Origin: an uncultured Chloroflexia bacterium
GTDB taxonomy: Bacteria; Chloroflexota; Limnocylindria; Limnocylindrales; CSP1-4
DNA length: 64,000 nt
Assembly (NCBI GenBank): GCA_963766735.1
Contig: CAVYBU010000006.1
Location: 141,272 to 205,271 of the forward strand
Reading direction: 5' to 3'
The notes under the pieces are model-generated. The model ran no database searches and was not told where the DNA came from. It saw only the letters and a list, made by a program, of their open reading frames with translations. The translations under genes and the position numbers were made by a program. Positions 1,910 to 52,392 of this stretch are shown here, one piece after another; within the stretch, counting starts at the first letter, position 1, and the number at the start of each line of letters is the position of its first letter.

Positions 1910-1986
1910 TGGTACCCCCAAGGGGATTCGAACCCCTGATCTCCACCTTGAAAGGGTGGCGTCCTAGGCCTCTAGACGATGGGGGC
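1910..1986 (-). tRNA. tRNA-Glu(TTC)
   Basis: GCCCCCA...TGGGGGT-A-CCA acceptor stem, anticodon arm CCACC-CTTTCAA-GGTGG, GGTTCGAATCC T-arm, encoded CCA. Confidence 0.97.
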
Positions 1987-44658: not shown

Positions 44659-44976
44659 TCCCAGATAAGTCGCGGGTGAGCGGCGCGCGGCACCATGCCG
44701 CGCATGCCTGCGACGACCCATGGCTCCGACCGCCACGGAGCCAGATCCAACCACCCAGGGCCAACCGCCCGGGTTCCCGGGCACCCGCCGCTGGGCGGCC
44801 GGGTTGACGCTGCCGATCCCGCATCCCTATCGTTCGCGCCATCAGACGGCGCCGCTACCGGCAGCAGTTCCCGGCCGAACCCGTCGACGTCAGGGCACGA
44901 GGGACATGCGCTGGTCGCGGTCGGGCCTGGGATCGCAGGTTCAATGCTGTTCGCGGGACCGATCGGGCGGCTGGGG

Positions 44977-47900
44977 ATGAACCCGCTGCCGATCCAGCCG
45001 GCGAAGATCCACCCGCCGCTGCTCCGCCACGATGTCCTCTCCCGAGAGCGCCTCAACGGCTGGCTGGACAACGCGGCGAACGGGCGCGTCGCGCTGGTCA
45101 TCGCCGAGGCCGGGTTCGGCAAGACCACGTTCCTTGCGGACTGGGCGCGCCACACCCGACGCGCAACGGCGTGGTACCGCCTGGAACCGGATGACCGGGA
45201 CTGGCTCGCCTTCATCAGGCATCTGGTCGCAAGCGGCCGGGAGATCGACCCCGGGTTCGCTCCGGATACCTACGACCTGCTGGCCGCACTGGGGCCAGGT
45301 GGTCCGTCCAGGGATGACCTGATCGTCAGCGTCGCCCAGGAGATGGCCGAACTCGCATCGTCGCTGCCCAACGGCCTGAGCCTCCTGTTCGACGACTACC
45401 ACTCCGTCGACGGCAGCCCCGAGACCGAGCCCGTCATGAAGGCCCTGGTCGATCGAACGGGACCCGAATTCTCCCTGGTCATCGCGTCCCGGGCGGCGCC
45501 ATCGCTCGCCCTGGGCAGGCTGCGCGCCCGCGGCGCCCTCTCGCGGATCGACGGCGACGGCCTCTGTTTCGACGTCCCCGAGACGGAGCGCCTCTTCCGG
45601 GATGCCTACCACCAGCCCCTGGACGCGGACGTGGTGGTGGACCTGATCGCCCGGACGGAAGGCTGGGCCGCGCTCCTGTCGCTGGTCCACACGAGCCTTG
45701 AGGGCCGAGCGGCCGTCGAGGCTCGCGGGCTCGTCCGGCACCTGTCGGGCGCTCGCGGCGACATTCGTGACTATCTCGCCGAGGAGGTTCTCGACCACCT
45801 TGCTGATCATCTTGCTGACTTCTTGGTGCGCGCTTCGATCCTCGATGTTGTCGGGCCCGAGTCTGCGGCGCTACTTGGGATCGGCTCCAGAGATGAGTGC
45901 GTGGCAATGATCCGAGACGCCGCTGGCCTTGGTCTTTTGGTCGAGATCACGACGGGTGATGGCCACAGGTTCGTTCCGCTCGTTCGCGAGTACTTGTCCG
46001 CCCGTCTGAGCCGAGAAGAGGGGTGGGCCGCGATCCGCGATGCCCACATGATGCTGGGTGCGCACTACGTCGACTCTGACTGGAGGCTCGCCGCTCATCA
46101 CTATCGCGCTGCGGGGCAGCCGAGTTTGGCAGTCCAAGTCATCCAGAACTCCCTGAGCACCATCCTCGGCAGCGGACAGTACCGAGCTGCAGCTGACCTA
46201 CTCGCCGGTTCCGACGAACTCGTCGTAGGCGAGGTCCTTCGCTCACGACTCTTGCTACAAGTCGGCGCGGTCGCCGAAGCCCGATCCGCGTCGAGTTCCG
46301 CAGTCGCTGCCGCAGCATCGCACCGCCCAGCCGACCAATCGCTCGCTCTGCAGAACGCCGCAACGATCTCTCTGGTGTCTCGTCAGTACGAGGAAGGTCT
46401 CAAATACGCCGAAGAGGCGGAGGCGGCAGCCACCGACAGGTGGGAAGGGGAGCTCGCCCGGGCTCATGTCGCTCTGCTTGGCGCATCGGGAACTGGGAGC
46501 CTTCCGGCCCTGGTGCACCAACTTGAGCGCCTTCTGGGCGTCCAGCGCAAGCGGGCCTACTGGCATCACGCCGCCATCACAAGCCTCAACCTTGCTCAGG
46601 TCCTGGTTTGGCTGGACCGAGACACGGAAGCGCTGCGACATGCAGCCGACGCTGAAGAATTCCTGACCCGGTCATCCCAAGGCTATGAGTTGGTTTCCGT
46701 CAAGCTGGCGCAGGCTCACGCCGAGGCGCACCTCGGTCACTGGTGCGCAGCGCAGGCACTACTCGAGACCTCAGTTCAGACAGGCCACCCCGAGGGACAG
46801 GCTGAAGCGGTTCTAGACGCGGCAGGACTTGCTGCGTGGTTCGGGCCGAACGATCTCCCAGCGCGAATCCTGGCTCAGGTTCGGCGCGAGTCCCTCCCGT
46901 CCAGCTGGAAGGCACATTGGCGTATCGTCGATTTGTGGCTTGAGGAAGAGTCGCAGCGGCGGTCAGAGATCCTCGATGAGTTGCGGGCCGATCCGCCCCC
47001 CTCACTGGAGGTGGGGGCGGCATTTCGATGGCACTACACGAAGGCCAGGGCCTACCACGCTCAAGGGGATGCCAAAGGGTTCGACGACGAGATCGCGCGG
47101 GTTGACCAAGTCTGCCAACTCCAACGCTCACCGGTCGAGGAGCGGCTTCAGGCGTTGCTCCGTGGGGTCGCATCAGGACCACAGCATCTGTCGAGGGTGA
47201 TTGAGTCTTGGAGTCCGGCCTCCGCCCCTCTGATTGGGGTACTCGCGTACGAGGTCGCGGGCCTCCTAGGCTCCCTATCCGATGACGCCGCCGCTGCGGT
47301 TGGTCGTGCCGTGGCAGGTGCCCCATACAGATGGCGACGACCTCTGAGGGTCATGCTCGAGAAGGCCGGCCCGGCGCGACACCTGGACCGTATTGCACAA
47401 CTGCTTGAGGAGATCGGCGAATCGGCCGATGTTCAACTGCTTCGCGAGTACGGTCGTAGGTCGAAACGCGCGCGCGGAAACTGGGGCGAGGACTTGGGGC
47501 GACGACTCGCCCCGAGGGCGTTCATCGAGGATCTAGGCCCGATCTCGATCATCATTGGTGATCGCGTGATCGACGGGCGAGGAATCCGCCGCAGAGTCCT
47601 CGGCCTTCTTGCCTTTCTGATTAGCCAGCCCAACGGATCAGCAACGCCCGACCGCGTCATGGATGCACTGTGGCCTGAGTTGGACCCCGGGCAAGGGAGC
47701 AACTCGATCCACCAGACCATCTACTTCCTTCGGCGCGTGATCGACCCAGACTACCGGGCAGGCGTCTCTCCCGAGTACGTGCACTTCGATAGTGAGGTGA
47801 TCTGGCTCGATCGGGATCTCGTGCAGTGCAGGAGTTGGCGCTGTCAGGCTCTCCTAGGCAAGCGCGCCCTCTCGCCATCAGAGGTCGACGAACTCGTCCG

Positions 47901-48222
47901 GGACTACTGCGGGCGGTTCGCGGCCGAGTTCCCGTACGAGGACTGGGCGTCGGACTATCGGGACCATCTACATGCGCGCTACCTGGGCGAGATCGAGAAG
48001 GTCCTCTCAGAGCCTCGTCATAGTCCAGACCTGCGATGGAGATTATGGGTCGGCCAGCGGGCGCTTTCGGTCGATCCTGAAGCCGATGCGGTCGAGGCTC
48101 ACGTGATCCGGTTGTATCGCCGACTTGGGGCGTCTGCCGCCGCGGCAGAGCAGTACGGGCACTACTCGACCGTCATGAGAGACCAGCTCGGCGTCGAGCC
48201 CCCTGGGATCGAGGACCTCTGA
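44977..48222 (+). CDS. large transcriptional regulator: MalT-like ATPase, helical/TPR-like region, C-terminal winged-HTH + BTAD
   Basis: KIHPP, AEAGFGKTT (Walker A), FDDYH, TEGWAA, DYLAEEV; C-terminal LGP...LLAFL...DALWPE...IYFLRR...Y.G.F....PYEDW; start uncertain. Confidence 0.85.
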   Translation: MNPLPIQPAKIHPPLLRHDVLSRERLNGWLDNAANGRVALVIAEAGFGKTTFLADWARHTRRATAWYRLEPDDRDWLAFIRHLVASGREIDPGFAPDTYDLLAALGPGGPSRDDLIVSVAQEMAELASSLPNGLSLLFDDYHSVDGSPETEPVMKALVDRTGPEFSLVIASRAAPSLALGRLRARGALSRIDGDGLCFDVPETERLFRDAYHQPLDADVVVDLIARTEGWAALLSLVHTSLEGRAAVEARGLVRHLSGARGDIRDYLAEEVLDHLADHLADFLVRASILDVVGPESAALLGIGSRDECVAMIRDAAGLGLLVEITTGDGHRFVPLVREYLSARLSREEGWAAIRDAHMMLGAHYVDSDWRLAAHHYRAAGQPSLAVQVIQNSLSTILGSGQYRAAADLLAGSDELVVGEVLRSRLLLQVGAVAEARSASSSAVAAAASHRPADQSLALQNAATISLVSRQYEEGLKYAEEAEAAATDRWEGELARAHVALLGASGTGSLPALVHQLERLLGVQRKRAYWHHAAITSLNLAQVLVWLDRDTEALRHAADAEEFLTRSSQGYELVSVKLAQAHAEAHLGHWCAAQALLETSVQTGHPEGQAEAVLDAAGLAAWFGPNDLPARILAQVRRESLPSSWKAHWRIVDLWLEEESQRRSEILDELRADPPPSLEVGAAFRWHYTKARAYHAQGDAKGFDDEIARVDQVCQLQRSPVEERLQALLRGVASGPQHLSRVIESWSPASAPLIGVLAYEVAGLLGSLSDDAAAAVGRAVAGAPYRWRRPLRVMLEKAGPARHLDRIAQLLEEIGESADVQLLREYGRRSKRARGNWGEDLGRRLAPRAFIEDLGPISIIIGDRVIDGRGIRRRVLGLLAFLISQPNGSATPDRVMDALWPELDPGQGSNSIHQTIYFLRRVIDPDYRAGVSPEYVHFDSEVIWLDRDLVQCRSWRCQALLGKRALSPSEVDELVRDYCGRFAAEFPYEDWASDYRDHLHARYLGEIEKVLSEPRHSPDLRWRLWVGQRALSVDPEADAVEAHVIRLYRRLGASAAAAEQYGHYSTVMRDQLGVEPPGIEDL

Positions 48223-48316
48223 TCCAGCTGGTCGCGCCCGGCGACGAATGGGCGAGCGAGCGTGTCGGTATTGGCTTCCGAGTGGGCGGCCCGGTGGGCA
48301 TAGGTAGGGTTGCGTA

Positions 48317-48346
48317 TTGACCGGTGTAGTCCGCCGTGCATATAGT
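48317..48346 (+). promoter_or_regulatory. sigma70-type promoter of the riboswitch/peptide operon
   Basis: TTGACC-N18-TATAGT. Confidence 0.75.
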
Positions 48347-48388
48347 CCGGCCCTGCACCAGTACTTTCGTACGGTGCACCAAGGAAAC

Positions 48389-48464
48389 GCTTGGACGCGC
48401 TGATGCCACCACCTGAAATGGGCACTTAGGGTGGAGGCGGAGCGAGTAGTGCAACCGACCGGCT
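48389..48464 (+). ncRNA. c-di-GMP-II riboswitch aptamer
   Basis: GGA-CGC-GC-TGATG-[CCAC..CCT]-GAAAT-GGGCACTT-[AGG GTGG]..GGA-GCG-AGTAGTGCAACCGACC: conserved class II blocks, CGC/GCG stem, GCACT/AGTGC pseudoknot. Confidence 0.88.
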
Positions 48465-48489
48465 TTCGAGTCAGGTCGGTTTTCGTGTT
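48453..48489 (+). terminator. intrinsic terminator overlapping the aptamer 3' end (expression platform)
   Basis: AACCGACC-GGCT-TTCG-AGTC-A-GGTCGGTT followed by TTCGTGTT. Confidence 0.8.
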
Positions 48490-48524
48490 CCCGGCGGACA
48501 CGGAGGCCGCAAGGAGGTACGAGC

Positions 48525-48557
48525 GTGGCACCGAGCAAGGGCCTCAAGGGCTGGTAG
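48525..48557 (+). CDS. 10-aa micropeptide MAPSKGLKGW
   Basis: AAGGAGG at 48511-48517, 7 nt before GTG; ends LKGW like the LKGF end of the next ORF. Confidence 0.55.
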   Translation: MAPSKGLKGW

Positions 48558-48583
48558 GACCAGGATCGCGGGAGGATCGACCG

Positions 48584-48673
48584 ATGAAGGATCGCCTCAT
48601 GCGACTCCTGGCCACTCTCGGCGCAGTCGCCGCATTGGCGCTCGCCGGAGGCGCGTCGCTAAAGGGCTTCTAG
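48584..48673 (+). CDS. 29-aa signal-peptide-like precursor MKDRLMRLLATLGAVAALALAGGASLKGF
   Basis: GGAGG RBS 8 nt before ATG; basic n-region, hydrophobic h-region, short polar tail. Confidence 0.8.
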   Translation: MKDRLMRLLATLGAVAALALAGGASLKGF

Positions 48674-48758
48674 AAGCAGGCAAGGGCCTCAGTACACAAG
48701 TCCTCTTCACTTGTGGGTCGAAGGGGCTAGAGTCCCACCGTTCGGGAACTGAGGACGA

Positions 48759-50123
48759 ATGCCGACAAAGCTGAAGCTCTACATTATTGGAGTCGTAGCG
48801 ACGAGCGCTATCGCGCTCGCTGCTACGACTCGTTTGATTCCAGTCGAGGACGGGGTTGCCCTGACTGTGGGGCCGTTCGGATCTCTCTCGACTCAGGCAG
48901 GCCTCGCATTCTGGTGTGCGGTGACCCTGATCGCGTCCGCGCTTCCCGTCCGAATGCCTCGCGGAACCATGGTGGGCGTTTCGATCGCGCCGCTGATTGC
49001 GGCCACGGTCCTGGGCGGTCCGACTGCCGGAGCCTGGGTCGCGCTCATCGGGACGACGGAGGTGCGTGAGCTGCGCGGCCGTGTTCCGTGGTACGGCTCG
49101 CTGGCCAACCACGCCGGGCTGATGATCCCCGCGATGGTGGCCGGCATGGTCATGCGAGTACTCGGCGTCCCGGGGAGCGAGGAGTACGCGATCACCTTCA
49201 TCGCGGCTCTGATCGGTGCGGCCGCCTTCTTCCTGGTCAACGCGACGCTCACCGCTGCCGCGGTGGCCCTCCAAACTGAGCAGCCATTTCGCAGCGTGTT
49301 GCTGGGCGACGCCAAGGTCTTCGCCACGAACCTAATTGGGCTTGCCCCGCTCGCTTGGCTCATGGCCCAGATGTACGAGGTAGCTTGGTGGGCGAGCTTG
49401 CTGTTCGCCGTTCCGCTCTACACGACGCGGCTCGCGTACCACAACATCATCGAGATGCGCGAGATGTTCACTCAGACCATCACCGCGCTGGCTGGGGCCG
49501 TGGACAAGCGCGATCCGTACACCAGCAAGCACTCGTGGCGGGTCAAGGAGATCGCAGGCGATATCGGACGGGTCATGCGCCTGGGCGAGAGTGACCTCGA
49601 GGCCCTCGAATGGGGCGGCCTGCTGCACGACGTGGGCAAGATCGGCGTGCGGGACGCGGTGCTGCTCAAGCAGGAGAAGCTCAACAAGGAGGAACGGGCG
49701 CAGATGAACGCGCACCCGGTCCTCGGTGCGGAGATCATCGCGCCGGTGACGCGGCTGTCCCGGGAGCTGCCGATCATCCGCCACCACCACGAGTGGTACA
49801 ACGGCTCGGGGTACCCGGACCGGCTGATCGGGGACGAGATCCCGCTGCTGGCACGCATCCTTCACGTCGCGGACGCCTTCGAGGCGATGACCGCCGCCCG
49901 GCCATACCGGATGACGCCGCTGACCTCGGAGCAGGCACTGGGCGAGCTGCGCAAGTTCGCCGGCGTCCAGTTCGATCCCAAGGTGGTGGACGCCTTCGTG
50001 AAGACAGACTGGGCCCAGGATGTGGCCGACCCGGGCCGGACGGCGCAGGCGCGACCGATCCCGCTGATCTCGCAGCACGCGAACCGGACGGCCAACGCCG
50101 TTGCCACTCCCGACGCAACCTGA
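48759..50123 (+). CDS. HD-GYP phosphodiesterase with N-terminal multi-TM sensor domain
   Basis: About 6-7 TM, then DPYTSKHSWRV, LLHDVGKIG, HHEWYNGSGYP, VADAFEAMT..RPYR, QFDP. Confidence 0.93.
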   Translation: MPTKLKLYIIGVVATSAIALAATTRLIPVEDGVALTVGPFGSLSTQAGLAFWCAVTLIASALPVRMPRGTMVGVSIAPLIAATVLGGPTAGAWVALIGTTEVRELRGRVPWYGSLANHAGLMIPAMVAGMVMRVLGVPGSEEYAITFIAALIGAAAFFLVNATLTAAAVALQTEQPFRSVLLGDAKVFATNLIGLAPLAWLMAQMYEVAWWASLLFAVPLYTTRLAYHNIIEMREMFTQTITALAGAVDKRDPYTSKHSWRVKEIAGDIGRVMRLGESDLEALEWGGLLHDVGKIGVRDAVLLKQEKLNKEERAQMNAHPVLGAEIIAPVTRLSRELPIIRHHHEWYNGSGYPDRLIGDEIPLLARILHVADAFEAMTAARPYRMTPLTSEQALGELRKFAGVQFDPKVVDAFVKTDWAQDVADPGRTAQARPIPLISQHANRTANAVATPDAT

Positions 50124-50232
50124 GCACTTCCGCCTCGCCGGACAGCCTCGGCGGAGGTCGCACGGGTCGTAGCGGCAAACCGCTGCGGCACTGGCCGCAC
50201 ATGGATCGGGTGCCCGGCCCCACAATCTCGGG

Positions 50233-52392
50233 ATGCTGATCGGCGGTATCGCGCTCGGGCTGGTGCTCGGTCTGCTCCTGGGCGGGCGCCTGGAGAACCT
50301 GGCCGGCATCCGGCTGCGCTTCCTGCCGCTGCTGTTCGCGGCGGTGATCCTGCGGTTTGCGACGGAGGCGCTGCTCGGGATGGGCGTCGAGGTCGTGGAC
50401 CTGCTGCGCGTGCCGCTGCTCGGAGGCGCGTACGGGCTCCTGCTCTTCACCCTCTGGCACAACCGCTCGTACCCGGGCCTGGCGCTGGCCTTCATCGGGA
50501 TCGCGTCCAACACCCTGGTGATCGTGTGGAACGGGGGCTGGATGCCGGTGTGGCAGCCCGCCTACGACGCGTCCGGGCTGGCGGGACCGCTCTACTCGCA
50601 GCTCCACTTCCCGATCAGTGGCACCGGCGCCGAGTTCCTGGTCCACCTGGGCCCGCTGGCGGACGTCGTCCCGTTCCCCATCCCACCGCTGCAGAACGTC
50701 GCCTCGGTCGGTGACCTGTTCCTGACGGCCGGCCTGGCCATCTTCCTGTTCGCCACCCTGATGAGAACGCCGGCCGACACGCAGACGGCGATCGACGAGG
50801 CAAAGACGGGTCGCTACCTGGGCCTGTCGGGCACGGCCCGCCTGCCGAGGCGTGGCGAGGCGGCGGGGGACGCGACGAGCCTGGGCGTCCGCCCGGGAAC
50901 AGGCCTGACGCCCGGCCTGCAGGAGGCCGCGGCCCTCGAACGCCCGCTGATCATGGGCGCCAGCGGCATGGGCATGTCATCGCCGTCCCAGACGTCGCTC
51001 GCGTCGGAGGGAGCCACCGCCGGAACCGGAGTCGCGGCCGCCACCGCCACCGCCTTCCCCGGCGGCATTGCGATCCCCCGCCCGCGTCCTCGCCGGCGCG
51101 CGCTCGCCCCGCGCGTCCGCCGCCACCCGTACGTGCGCCTGGCGCTCAACGGCTCGTTCTCGGCGCTATGGGTGGGCCAGGTGATCAGCCTGTTCGGGGA
51201 TCGCGTCAACCAGATCGCCCTGGGCGCCTTCGTCTACGAGCTGACCGACTCCCCGTTCGCCGTGGCGCTGACCTTCTTCATGGGGACGATCCCCAACCTG
51301 GTCTTCTCGCCGATCGCCGGGGCCTACGTGGACCGCTGGGACAAGAAGCAGGTGCTGGTGGTCTCGGACATCCTCCGGGCGGCGCTGACCCTGCTCGTGC
51401 CGGTGGCCGTCCTGATCAACGTCTGGCTGGCGTACCCGCTGGTCTTCCTGATCACGACGGTCTCGATCTTCTTCCGACCGGCGCGGGTTGCGATCCTGCC
51501 GCGCCTGGTCCCCAAGCGGGACCTGCTCTCCGCCAACTCCGCGATGTGGGTGGGAGAGACGCTGGCCGACGTCATCAACTACCCGATCGCCGGCCTGTTC
51601 GTGGTCTTCCTGGCTGGATCGCTGCCGATCGCGTTCTGGTTCGATGCCGCCACCTACCTGGTCTCGGCCGCCCTGCTGGCCTCGATCGCGATGCCGCCGC
51701 TGGCCCGGCGAATCCGCGGCACGGACGCCGCCGATGGTCCGGAGGGAGCGAACGAGGGCGAGGGCGGGACAGACTCCCAGACCTCGATCCTCACCGACAT
51801 GAAGGTGGGATGGGCATTCCTCCGCCACGAGACCGTCCTGCTGGCGAACACGATCCAGGGGACGGCCGGCCAGTTCGCGGTCGGCATCGTCACGGTGTCC
51901 GCCATCATCCTGGCGAGGCAGATCACGGGTTCGGATGGCAACGAGTACCGCGCGACCTACGCGTTCATGGAGACGGCCATCGGCCTCGGCAACCTGATGG
52001 GCGGCTTCGCCCTGGGCATGGTGGCCACGCGCGTCCGCAAGGGGCGGCTGGTGATCGCCGCCTACACGGTCTTCGGCGTCCTGATCTTCCTGGTCGGCCT
52101 GACCGATTCGATCCCGCTGATCCTGGGGCTGCTGTTCGGGGTCGGCGTGGCGAACATGGCGTTCGTCATCCCCAGCCAGACGATGTTCCAGGAGCGCACG
52201 CCGCCGGAGCTGATGGGGCGCGTGGTCAGCCTCCGGTTTGCCCTCGTGTTCGGCGGTATGTCCGTGGCCATGGCCGTGGGCGGCCTCCTGGTGGGGATCT
52301 TCGGGCCGAGCCCGGTGATCGCGGCGGCCGGACTGCTGTCGATCGTCGCCGGTCTCGCGGGGCTCGGCGTCAAGGCGCTGCGGGAGGCGTGA
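50233..52392 (+). CDS. DUF5317-like membrane domain fused to an MFS transporter
   Basis: N-terminal GGRLENL, SN..VI..NGGWMPV, LAD, SVGD; C-terminal LWVGQVISLFGD, GAYVDRWDKK, QERTPPELMGRV. Confidence 0.85.
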   Translation: MLIGGIALGLVLGLLLGGRLENLAGIRLRFLPLLFAAVILRFATEALLGMGVEVVDLLRVPLLGGAYGLLLFTLWHNRSYPGLALAFIGIASNTLVIVWNGGWMPVWQPAYDASGLAGPLYSQLHFPISGTGAEFLVHLGPLADVVPFPIPPLQNVASVGDLFLTAGLAIFLFATLMRTPADTQTAIDEAKTGRYLGLSGTARLPRRGEAAGDATSLGVRPGTGLTPGLQEAAALERPLIMGASGMGMSSPSQTSLASEGATAGTGVAAATATAFPGGIAIPRPRPRRRALAPRVRRHPYVRLALNGSFSALWVGQVISLFGDRVNQIALGAFVYELTDSPFAVALTFFMGTIPNLVFSPIAGAYVDRWDKKQVLVVSDILRAALTLLVPVAVLINVWLAYPLVFLITTVSIFFRPARVAILPRLVPKRDLLSANSAMWVGETLADVINYPIAGLFVVFLAGSLPIAFWFDAATYLVSAALLASIAMPPLARRIRGTDAADGPEGANEGEGGTDSQTSILTDMKVGWAFLRHETVLLANTIQGTAGQFAVGIVTVSAIILARQITGSDGNEYRATYAFMETAIGLGNLMGGFALGMVATRVRKGRLVIAAYTVFGVLIFLVGLTDSIPLILGLLFGVGVANMAFVIPSQTMFQERTPPELMGRVVSLRFALVFGGMSVAMAVGGLLVGIFGPSPVIAAAGLLSIVAGLAGLGVKALREA

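Follow-up and report, generated by a model that had tools for sequence, protein, structure and literature searches.

Riboswitches for cyclic dinucleotides are involved in the synthesis, degradation and signalling of these molecules (PMC13715770). An association with genes of this kind is therefore generally known. In Clostridioides difficile, the four class-II riboswitches for cyclic diguanylate (c-di-GMP), Cdi-2-1 to Cdi-2-4, were all described as ON switches, with transcripts up 4- to 42-fold with c-di-GMP (PMC6200980). Class-I switches of this species that stand before 58-amino-acid (aa) membrane proteins promoting sporulation (the CD1980.2 family) are OFF switches acting by premature termination (PMC13724677). 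For the class-II RNA of Clostridium acetobutylicum crystallised with c-di-GMP (PDB 3Q3Z), it was reported that A69 recognises one guanine of the ligand, that G73 together with the A70 ribose recognises the other, that A70 intercalates between the ligand bases, and that the pocket has as its ceiling an adenine eight bases upstream (PMC13715770). Here we describe a class-II leader from an uncultured Chloroflexia bacterium of Candidatus Limnocylindria, located in a stretch of 64,000 nucleotides (nt); this stretch, the window, makes up the last 64 kb of contig C6 in a 3.6-Mb bin (the own genome, G000). Our reading, to which we give a probability of roughly 75%, is that a functional class-II aptamer controls a terminator, that ligand binding relieves termination, and that read-through then yields two micropeptides and most likely a phosphodiesterase with an HD-GYP domain and a DUF5317-MFS transporter, closing a feedback on c-di-GMP.

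The C. difficile class-II switches share with the proposed window switch the Rfam family and the ON logic; they control adhesins and pili (Cdi-2-4 stands before pilA1), whereas in the window two micropeptides, a phosphodiesterase and a transporter follow. The window leader also differs in belonging to Chloroflexota, with high G+C, and in carrying extra conserved hairpins at 48354-48378 and 48478-48508. For a c-di-GMP riboswitch ahead of small membrane proteins the CD1980.2 family is the one precedent, and the likeness is one of arrangement: a c-di-GMP riboswitch controls very small membrane-associated proteins by termination, but there it is a class-I OFF switch before single 58-aa proteins, and here it would be a class-II ON switch before peptides of 10 and 29 aa linked to an HD-GYP gene. 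With 3Q3Z the window aptamer has in common the three-helix junction, the pseudoknot, the AACCG motif and the ceiling adenine eight bases upstream (PMC13715770), although the outer part of helix P1 is poorly conserved in the window's lineage.

The whole window was scanned with cmscan against Rfam, and two matches exceeded the curated cut-offs, RF01786 (c-di-GMP-II) and a tRNA. The RF01786 match at 48384-48467 on the forward strand covered model positions 1-84 of 84 with 59.5 bits, above the gathering score of 53.5, and an E-value of 1e-10. The variant model RF03169 (c-di-GMP-II-GAG) gave only 41.1 bits at this site, and the aptamer is therefore of the canonical type. A first-pass annotation, made from the letters alone, had called a c-di-GMP-II riboswitch here, and this call was borne out by the covariance-model scores and by the conservation described below. 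All the class-II blocks which it had named were located where it put them (TGATG at 48401-48405, GGGCACTT at 48420-48427 and AGTAGTGCAACCGACC at 48445-48460); its CGC/GCG stem proved to be helix P2, and its pseudoknot the pairing of GCAC with GUGC. Of the bounds it had given, 48389 to 48489, the end agrees with the end of the U-rich tract described below, but the start lies 5 nt inside the aptamer. The aptamer is composed as follows:

48384-48467, forward strand: c-di-GMP-II aptamer (RF01786, full length)
48384-48394 with 48459-48467, forward strand: aptamer helix P1
48396-48398 with 48442-48444, forward strand: aptamer helix P2 (CGC/GCG)
48405-48412 with 48431-48438, forward strand: aptamer helix P3
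48422-48425 with 48449-48452, forward strand: pseudoknot between GCAC of the P3 loop and GUGC of the 3′ strand
48453-48457, forward strand: pocket bases AACCG

By motif and spacing against the published pocket (PMC13715770), A48445, A48453, A48454 and G48457 match A61, A69, A70 and G73 of 3Q3Z and would thus line the pocket here. In the alignment of related leaders given below, the columns of A48453, G48457 and the pseudoknot were invariant, and those of A48445 and A48454 nearly so.

The aptamer was found to be nearly universal and single-copy in one family, always at the same locus. Among 151 genomes of the same family as the window (the own genome and one unpublished genome, G141, included), RF01786 was above cut-off in 88, and E-values of 1e-9 or better were obtained in 35 of 49 genera. 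A draw of 61 genomes as relatives gave 26, all in the window's genus, and none of the 24 sister-family genomes of about 1 Mb in the same draw had a match above cut-off; a phylum sample of 151 genomes, counting the own genome and the unpublished G349, gave 26. The 80 best matches to the HD-GYP protein were taken as its orthologue loci, and the aptamer core was present by motif 300-500 nt upstream of the HD-GYP gene in 70 of them. Four of the 10 loci without the motif gave a covariance-model match (67.4, 57.5, 55.7 and, below the cut-off, 46.5 bits), and the remaining six have at most 305 nt of upstream DNA; with motif and covariance model together, the aptamer was upstream in 74 of the 74 loci having at least 517 nt there.

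Leaders of 140 loci were screened; after removal of 13 that were exact duplicates, 2 located at contig ends and 14 lacking the motif, the 111 distinct leaders left were aligned. When aptamer helices, pseudoknot and downstream hairpin were counted jointly, 96.0% of the cells were paired and 12 of 28 pairs had changed on both sides; these values were reached by 0 of 500 shuffles, and slid controls were 30-47% paired. The inner 4 pairs of helix P1 were paired in 95.7% of cells, helix P2 in 99.1% and helix P3 in 91.7%; two-sided changes were seen in 5 of the 8 P3 pairs and in one P1 pair. The pseudoknot was complementary in 111 of 111 leaders, and because all four of its pairs are invariant it has no independent covariation support.

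The annotation had further claimed that the 3′ strand of the aptamer is at the same time the 5′ arm of a terminator, the element described by this line:

48453-48489, forward strand: terminator hairpin and U-rich tract, with the 5′ arm at 48453-48460 and the 3′ arm at 48474-48481

The last 15 bases of the aptamer (48453-48467) are indeed common to the aptamer and this hairpin, in either of two registers. In register 1, 48453-48460 is paired with 48474-48481; register 2, obtained by pattern scan, is a 9-pair hairpin at 48457-48481; ACCGACCGGC (48454-48463) falls in the 5′ arm in both. The U-rich tract, UUUUCGUGUU, occupies 48480-48489. The isolated hairpin folds at -16.1 kcal/mol, and in the minimum-energy fold of 48384-48492 without ligand the hairpin, P2 and P3 are formed while helix P1 is open. 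Every part of this arrangement is conserved. Both nearly invariant arms were present in 111/111 leaders (median -15.6 kcal/mol), and the fraction of paired cells was 99.5% for register 1 and 99.4% for register 2. Four U in a row, without interruption, were seen in 89 of the 111, and the median was 7 U in the 10 nt from the last arm base. The same layout was met outside the family: six other Chloroflexota families supplied 10 class-II aptamers, in each of which a hairpin begins at the same AACCGRC bases, and eight have U runs of at least 4 (U5-U7 directly in seven, U4 three bases later in L148), the two without a U run belonging to a sister family of the same class. The window therefore has the phylum's common class-II layout with a weaker U tract. 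Because the arms are kept in 111/111 leaders, the hairpin is reused in 10/10 and a U run follows in 8/10, a transcriptional ON switch is the likeliest mode of action.

According to this mechanism, transcription would start at about 48353, which places the aptamer near the 5′ end of the mRNA. Without ligand, AACCGACC (48453-48460) would pair with GGUCGGUU (48474-48481), and the resulting hairpin with its U-rich tract would end transcription at about 48489. With c-di-GMP bound, the same bases, which include by spacing the equivalents of the ligand-contacting A69, A70 and G73, would be held in the pocket and in helix P1, no terminator would form and the polymerase would read on. Since A48453, A48454 and G48457 are bases 1, 2 and 5 of the terminator 5′ arm, ligand and terminator are expected to compete, giving ON logic. 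Reportedly, the class-II switches of C. difficile also use competition between aptamer and terminator. The read-through RNA would encode the 10-aa peptide, then the 29-aa membrane-type peptide and most likely the HD-GYP and DUF5317-MFS proteins too, and high c-di-GMP would raise its own degradation. The ON interpretation, already put forward in the annotation, is supported computationally by the model score, the compensatory changes, the shared hairpin and the layout in other families.

Peptides and a phosphodiesterase had been predicted too, and two peptide open reading frames (ORFs) and an HD-GYP gene are present downstream of the riboswitch:

48525-48557, forward strand: peptide gene P1, 10 codons plus stop, GTG start, product MAPSKGLKGW
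48584-48673, forward strand: peptide gene P2, 29 codons plus stop, Shine-Dalgarno (SD) sequence GGGAGGA at 48570-48576
48674-48758, forward strand: spacer of 85 nt between P2 and the HD-GYP gene, with a -10-like TAGAGT at 48728-48733
48759-50123, forward strand: 454-aa phosphodiesterase with an HD-GYP domain (Pfam HD_5); its N-terminus is a multi-pass membrane region
50233-52392, forward strand: DUF5317-MFS fusion membrane protein, 719 aa (Pfam DUF5317 2.8e-21, MFS_1 1.7e-19)

HD_5 (PF13487) matched the phosphodiesterase at 1e-37 over profile positions 6-170 of 170, HDVGK and GSGYP are found in the translation, and MASE9 on the membrane region gave 23.4 bits, just below the cut-off of 24.3. 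The DUF5317 gene lay 3′ of the HD-GYP gene in 79 of the 80 orthologue loci, the one miss having about 39 nt of downstream DNA. The phosphodiesterase would be induced by the riboswitch as well, because the gene order is conserved and no other terminator is predicted. The own genome has 16 GGDEF and 4 HD-GYP matches, so c-di-GMP signalling exists in it; at C24:26840-27931 and C3:5702-6793 lie frames of 527 and 547 aa, each with GGDEF and HD-GYP. Negative feedback by way of this enzyme is a plausible consequence, which we hold with lower confidence than the switch itself.

Several observations weigh against the proposed switch and its feedback. In a pattern scan of 47500-52000 against shuffles, the terminator pattern was not beyond chance (1 found, 1.4 expected), and the U tract of the window has just four uninterrupted U. 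Because both arms are nearly invariant, the terminator stem is essentially without covariation (one leader has C-G replaced by G-C, a compensating change, in register 2), and its support is therefore conservation and analogy. Helix P1 is short, its four conserved pairs being 95.7% paired. The pocket-lining first P2 pair, which stacks on the backbone of the ligand, is C48396-G48444, as compared with A14-U60 in the crystallised RNA (PMC13715770); it is C-G in 104 of the 111 related leaders, and since the Rfam consensus prints g-c there, this pair varies within the family. The closest PDB relative of the HD-GYP domain is an enzyme specific for 3′3′-cyclic GMP-AMP (3′3′-cGAMP). The -10-like hexamer of the spacer is conserved, and the phosphodiesterase may therefore not depend on the riboswitch alone. 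Lastly, the metatranscriptome contigs considered below may contain DNA, and they cannot show transcript ends or amounts.

The nature of the ligand is touched by two of these points. Among solved HD-GYP structures, 5z7c (V-cGAP3, a 3′3′-cGAMP-specific phosphodiesterase; 6.6e-33) was the best match, and small changes of the class-II scaffold permit cGAMP binding, with the first P2 pair, C-G here, affecting selectivity (PMC13715770); the natural ligand might then be another cyclic dinucleotide such as 3′3′-cGAMP, degraded by the HD-GYP enzyme. However, the score of the canonical model exceeds both its cut-off and the variant score, the pocket bases all agree with those of the c-di-GMP complex, the HD-GYP domain also matches the c-di-GMP phosphodiesterases 4mcw, next in rank, and 4r8z, and the genome contains 16 GGDEF matches (cGAMP synthases were not searched for). 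We regard a ligand other than c-di-GMP as highly improbable and keep c-di-GMP as the presumed one.

Three further elements were recognised in the leader:

48317-48346, forward strand: sigma-70-type promoter TTGACC-18 nt-TATAGT (pattern scan, 1 found against 0.3 expected)
48354-48378, forward strand: 5′-terminal hairpin H0 with the invariant core GUAC-N4-GUAC
48478-48508, forward strand: hairpin H2x of 12-13 pairs (-18.5 kcal/mol, z -3.18)

The expected transcription start given above follows from this promoter, and a pair of TTGAC-type and TAnnnT elements was present 32-44 nt before the aptamer in all 55 related loci with at least 100 nt upstream. The H0 core was likewise found in 55/55 loci, with a median stem of 9 pairs; its flanks vary by genus yet stay complementary, and H0 could stabilise the mRNA or bind a protein. 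GTAC was also seen to recur just 3′ of the stop of peptide gene P2 in many relatives. The 5′ arm of H2x is made of the last 4 nt of the terminator 3′ arm and the U tract, and, as read from these positions, H2x can form only in read-through RNA. In its extended form 97.1% of cells were paired and 6 of 12 pairs had changed on both sides, with slid controls at 41-58%. A start-codon hairpin predicted by folding (48506-48510 with 48525-48529) was rejected, being 78.3% paired against 84.4% for its slid control, and no conserved anti-SD sequence for translational control of peptide gene P1 was seen when the leader was inspected by eye.

The leader was also looked for in RNA libraries. Twenty runs shared 6-17% of the sampled words, and the four examined are sediment metatranscriptomes from four studies, available as assembled contigs, which together cover 48336-48735. 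The terminator was bridged, with more than 31 nt on each side, by three contigs (X3 record 6, 48393-48681 with 1 mismatch; X2 record 1, 48383-48557; X7 record 16, 48336-48735); if the contigs are RNA, read-through molecules with both peptide genes occur in nature. Contig ends at 48490-48492 (X6 records 8 and 9, X7 record 18) were considered as termination sites and discarded, as they coincide with the start of the variable loop. In the four runs, no contig with at least 88% likeness was found over 48757-49061, and the rest of the HD-GYP gene was represented by short, mismatch-rich pieces; this gap is uninformative on expression, because the conserved leader was used to find these runs, which consist of contigs.

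Such bridging contigs, together with a U tract that is short for a terminator, would also fit an aptamer working through mRNA stability or processing rather than intrinsic termination, with H2x as the real effector; H2x is conserved, 6 of its pairs being compensatory, and it overlaps the terminator base, which makes a chain of three mutually exclusive structures. This we consider unlikely. H2x cannot decide termination because its 3′ arm is transcribed after the polymerase has passed the U tract, the aptamer-hairpin layout has canonical U5-U7 tracts in other families, and control at the start codon finds no structure here either, the leader having by eye no SD-complementary sequence and the start-codon hairpin having failed its test. 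Intrinsic termination relieved by ligand is thus retained.

With regard to the phosphodiesterase, 55 of 62 spacers were found to carry a hexamer TA[GCA]A[GT]T. It lies upstream of the HD-GYP start codon, by 24-35 nt in most of them and by 15-21 or 58 nt in outlying cases. The hexamer looks like TATAGT, the -10 box of the main promoter, and could be the -10 box of an internal promoter or belong to an RNA element. RNAalifold of 51 of the 62 spacers gave 0 pairs and so no consensus structure (11 spacers unlike the rest, among them L014, L047, L090 and L118, were dropped by hand), and pairing of the bases after the P2 stop with the TAGAGT block was not above shuffles (mean -9.58 vs -8.32 kcal/mol; 14 of 55 better by 3 kcal/mol). 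A TTCACY hexamer, read from the sequences, stands 16-18 nt upstream of the spacer hexamer in this genus, and near-identical RNA-library contigs from two studies stop at 48680 and 48681, no loose end being listed, which weakly suggests a 3′ end following P2. These features would suit a riboswitch which mainly gates a short two-peptide mRNA, while HD-GYP and DUF5317-MFS are expressed largely from a separate start within the spacer, or processing there uncouples them, with no simple feedback. However, the -35 element is not conserved outside the genus, the pattern scan reported no second promoter- or terminator-like site in 47500-52000, one RNA-library contig extends to 48735, and the order of riboswitch, peptides, HD-GYP and DUF5317 is kept in 74/74 and 79/80 loci. 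Such an uncoupled operon is in our opinion doubtful, though it deserves more weight than the alternatives on ligand and on mRNA stability; control of the whole operon by the riboswitch is preferred.

Both peptide genes were found to evolve as coding sequences. Peptide gene P1 is preceded by the strong SD sequence AAGGAGG at 48511-48517, and an ORF of its type was called in 98 of the 111 leaders. Among 85 distinct 10-codon versions, K8 was invariant, position 10 was W, F, Y or C, and proline at position 3 (P3) was present in 72; the codons for this proline and for glutamate (E4) vary mainly at the third base. The product of peptide gene P2 has a charged N-terminus, a single hydrophobic helix and the tail AGGASLKGF, and it matched no Pfam family. 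An ORF of some kind occupied the P2 position in 97 of the 111 leaders, several of them frame-broken or aberrant. For 74 distinct 29-codon versions, mean entropy was 0.87, 0.57 and 1.56 at codon positions 1, 2 and 3, a clear sign of coding, and the tail AGGAS-L-K/R-G-F was almost fixed.

K/R-G-aromatic is thus the ending shared by the two peptides. In each gene, third-base entropy over the final three codons and the stop (48546-48557 and 48662-48673) was 0.2-0.8, as compared with 1.4-1.9 in other conserved codons; this hints at a constraint on the shared tail at the level of RNA or translation, and the tail could also be read by RNA or ribosome. A search of the own genome found the 29-mer at this locus and on contig C10 only. 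In the sister-family loci L151, L154 and L155, the aptamer is followed by a short peptide ending in KGW and then by a membrane-type peptide, which ends in KGW where readable and has 32 aa in L151 and L154. Because the order is the same in these three loci, the twin peptides characterise the class and not the family alone. We tentatively suggest, while thinking it less probable than not by a good way, that the real output of the riboswitch is this micropeptide pair, a soluble 10-mer and a 29-mer with a membrane helix or signal-like segment, acting on or through HD-GYP and DUF5317-MFS, for instance as ligand, cargo or regulator; if true, this would be an undescribed peptide layer in c-di-GMP homeostasis across the class Limnocylindria.

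The riboswitch itself is a canonical RF01786 member with the usual ON platform; the peptide layer is the unusual part. An operon which combines a pair of tail-matched micropeptides with an HD-GYP sensor and a DUF5317-MFS protein was not found in the full-text literature, subscription journals being outside its coverage. The locus places riboswitch control by c-di-GMP in an abundant, uncultured lineage of soil and freshwater, and the first products under control would be two micropeptides missed by gene callers. Should the peptides act together with the HD-GYP sensor and the transporter, second-messenger feedback would be wired here in a new way. The unusually well-conserved leader, with five RNA elements in order, would be a good substrate for the study of class-II termination decisions at high G+C.

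A copy of the aptamer with the same score was obtained on contig C10 and was considered as a paralogue. This was rejected, since three blocks of C10 run collinear with C6 and are 95-99% identical to it. C10 (16377 bases) aligns to C6:184974-197621, with 96.3% identity over 1682 nt, a divergent stretch inside the upstream regulator gene, and 8 gaps against C6 which break the HD-GYP frame on C10. Judged from this alignment, C10 is a strain-variant contig, and the bin probably mixes two close strains. Equal GGDEF scores on C3 and C33, and near-equal GGDEF and HD-GYP scores on C3 and C24, may also point to mixed strains.

Besides the window aptamer and its C10 twin, 16 further sites in the own genome were above the RF03169 cut-off, including C7:1823-8259, C2:353897-353982, C8:9987-11228 and C3:312819-312903 (loci L003-L008 and others), some of them in tandem on C7 about 1-2.6 kb apart. 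These GAG variants belong to the same clan and the same overall fold model as the window aptamer, and they share its genome; however, they have GAGACCG where the window keeps the canonical CAACCG. The six examined precede, by 14-43 nt, genes whose small protein products bear signal peptides or lipoprotein signals. In these six the ribosome-binding site is directly 3′ of the aptamer and a terminator is absent, whereas the window aptamer has a terminator hairpin; translational control is therefore suggested for the GAG variants.

Two other features of the window stand outside the operon, the upstream neighbour and the tRNA gene from the Rfam scan:

44695-48222, forward strand: regulator-like protein, 1175 aa, upstream neighbour of the leader (weak Pfam matches: BTAD 8.6e-5, with AAA_16 and Trans_reg_C below cut-off)
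1913-1986, reverse strand: tRNA gene (63.5 bits)

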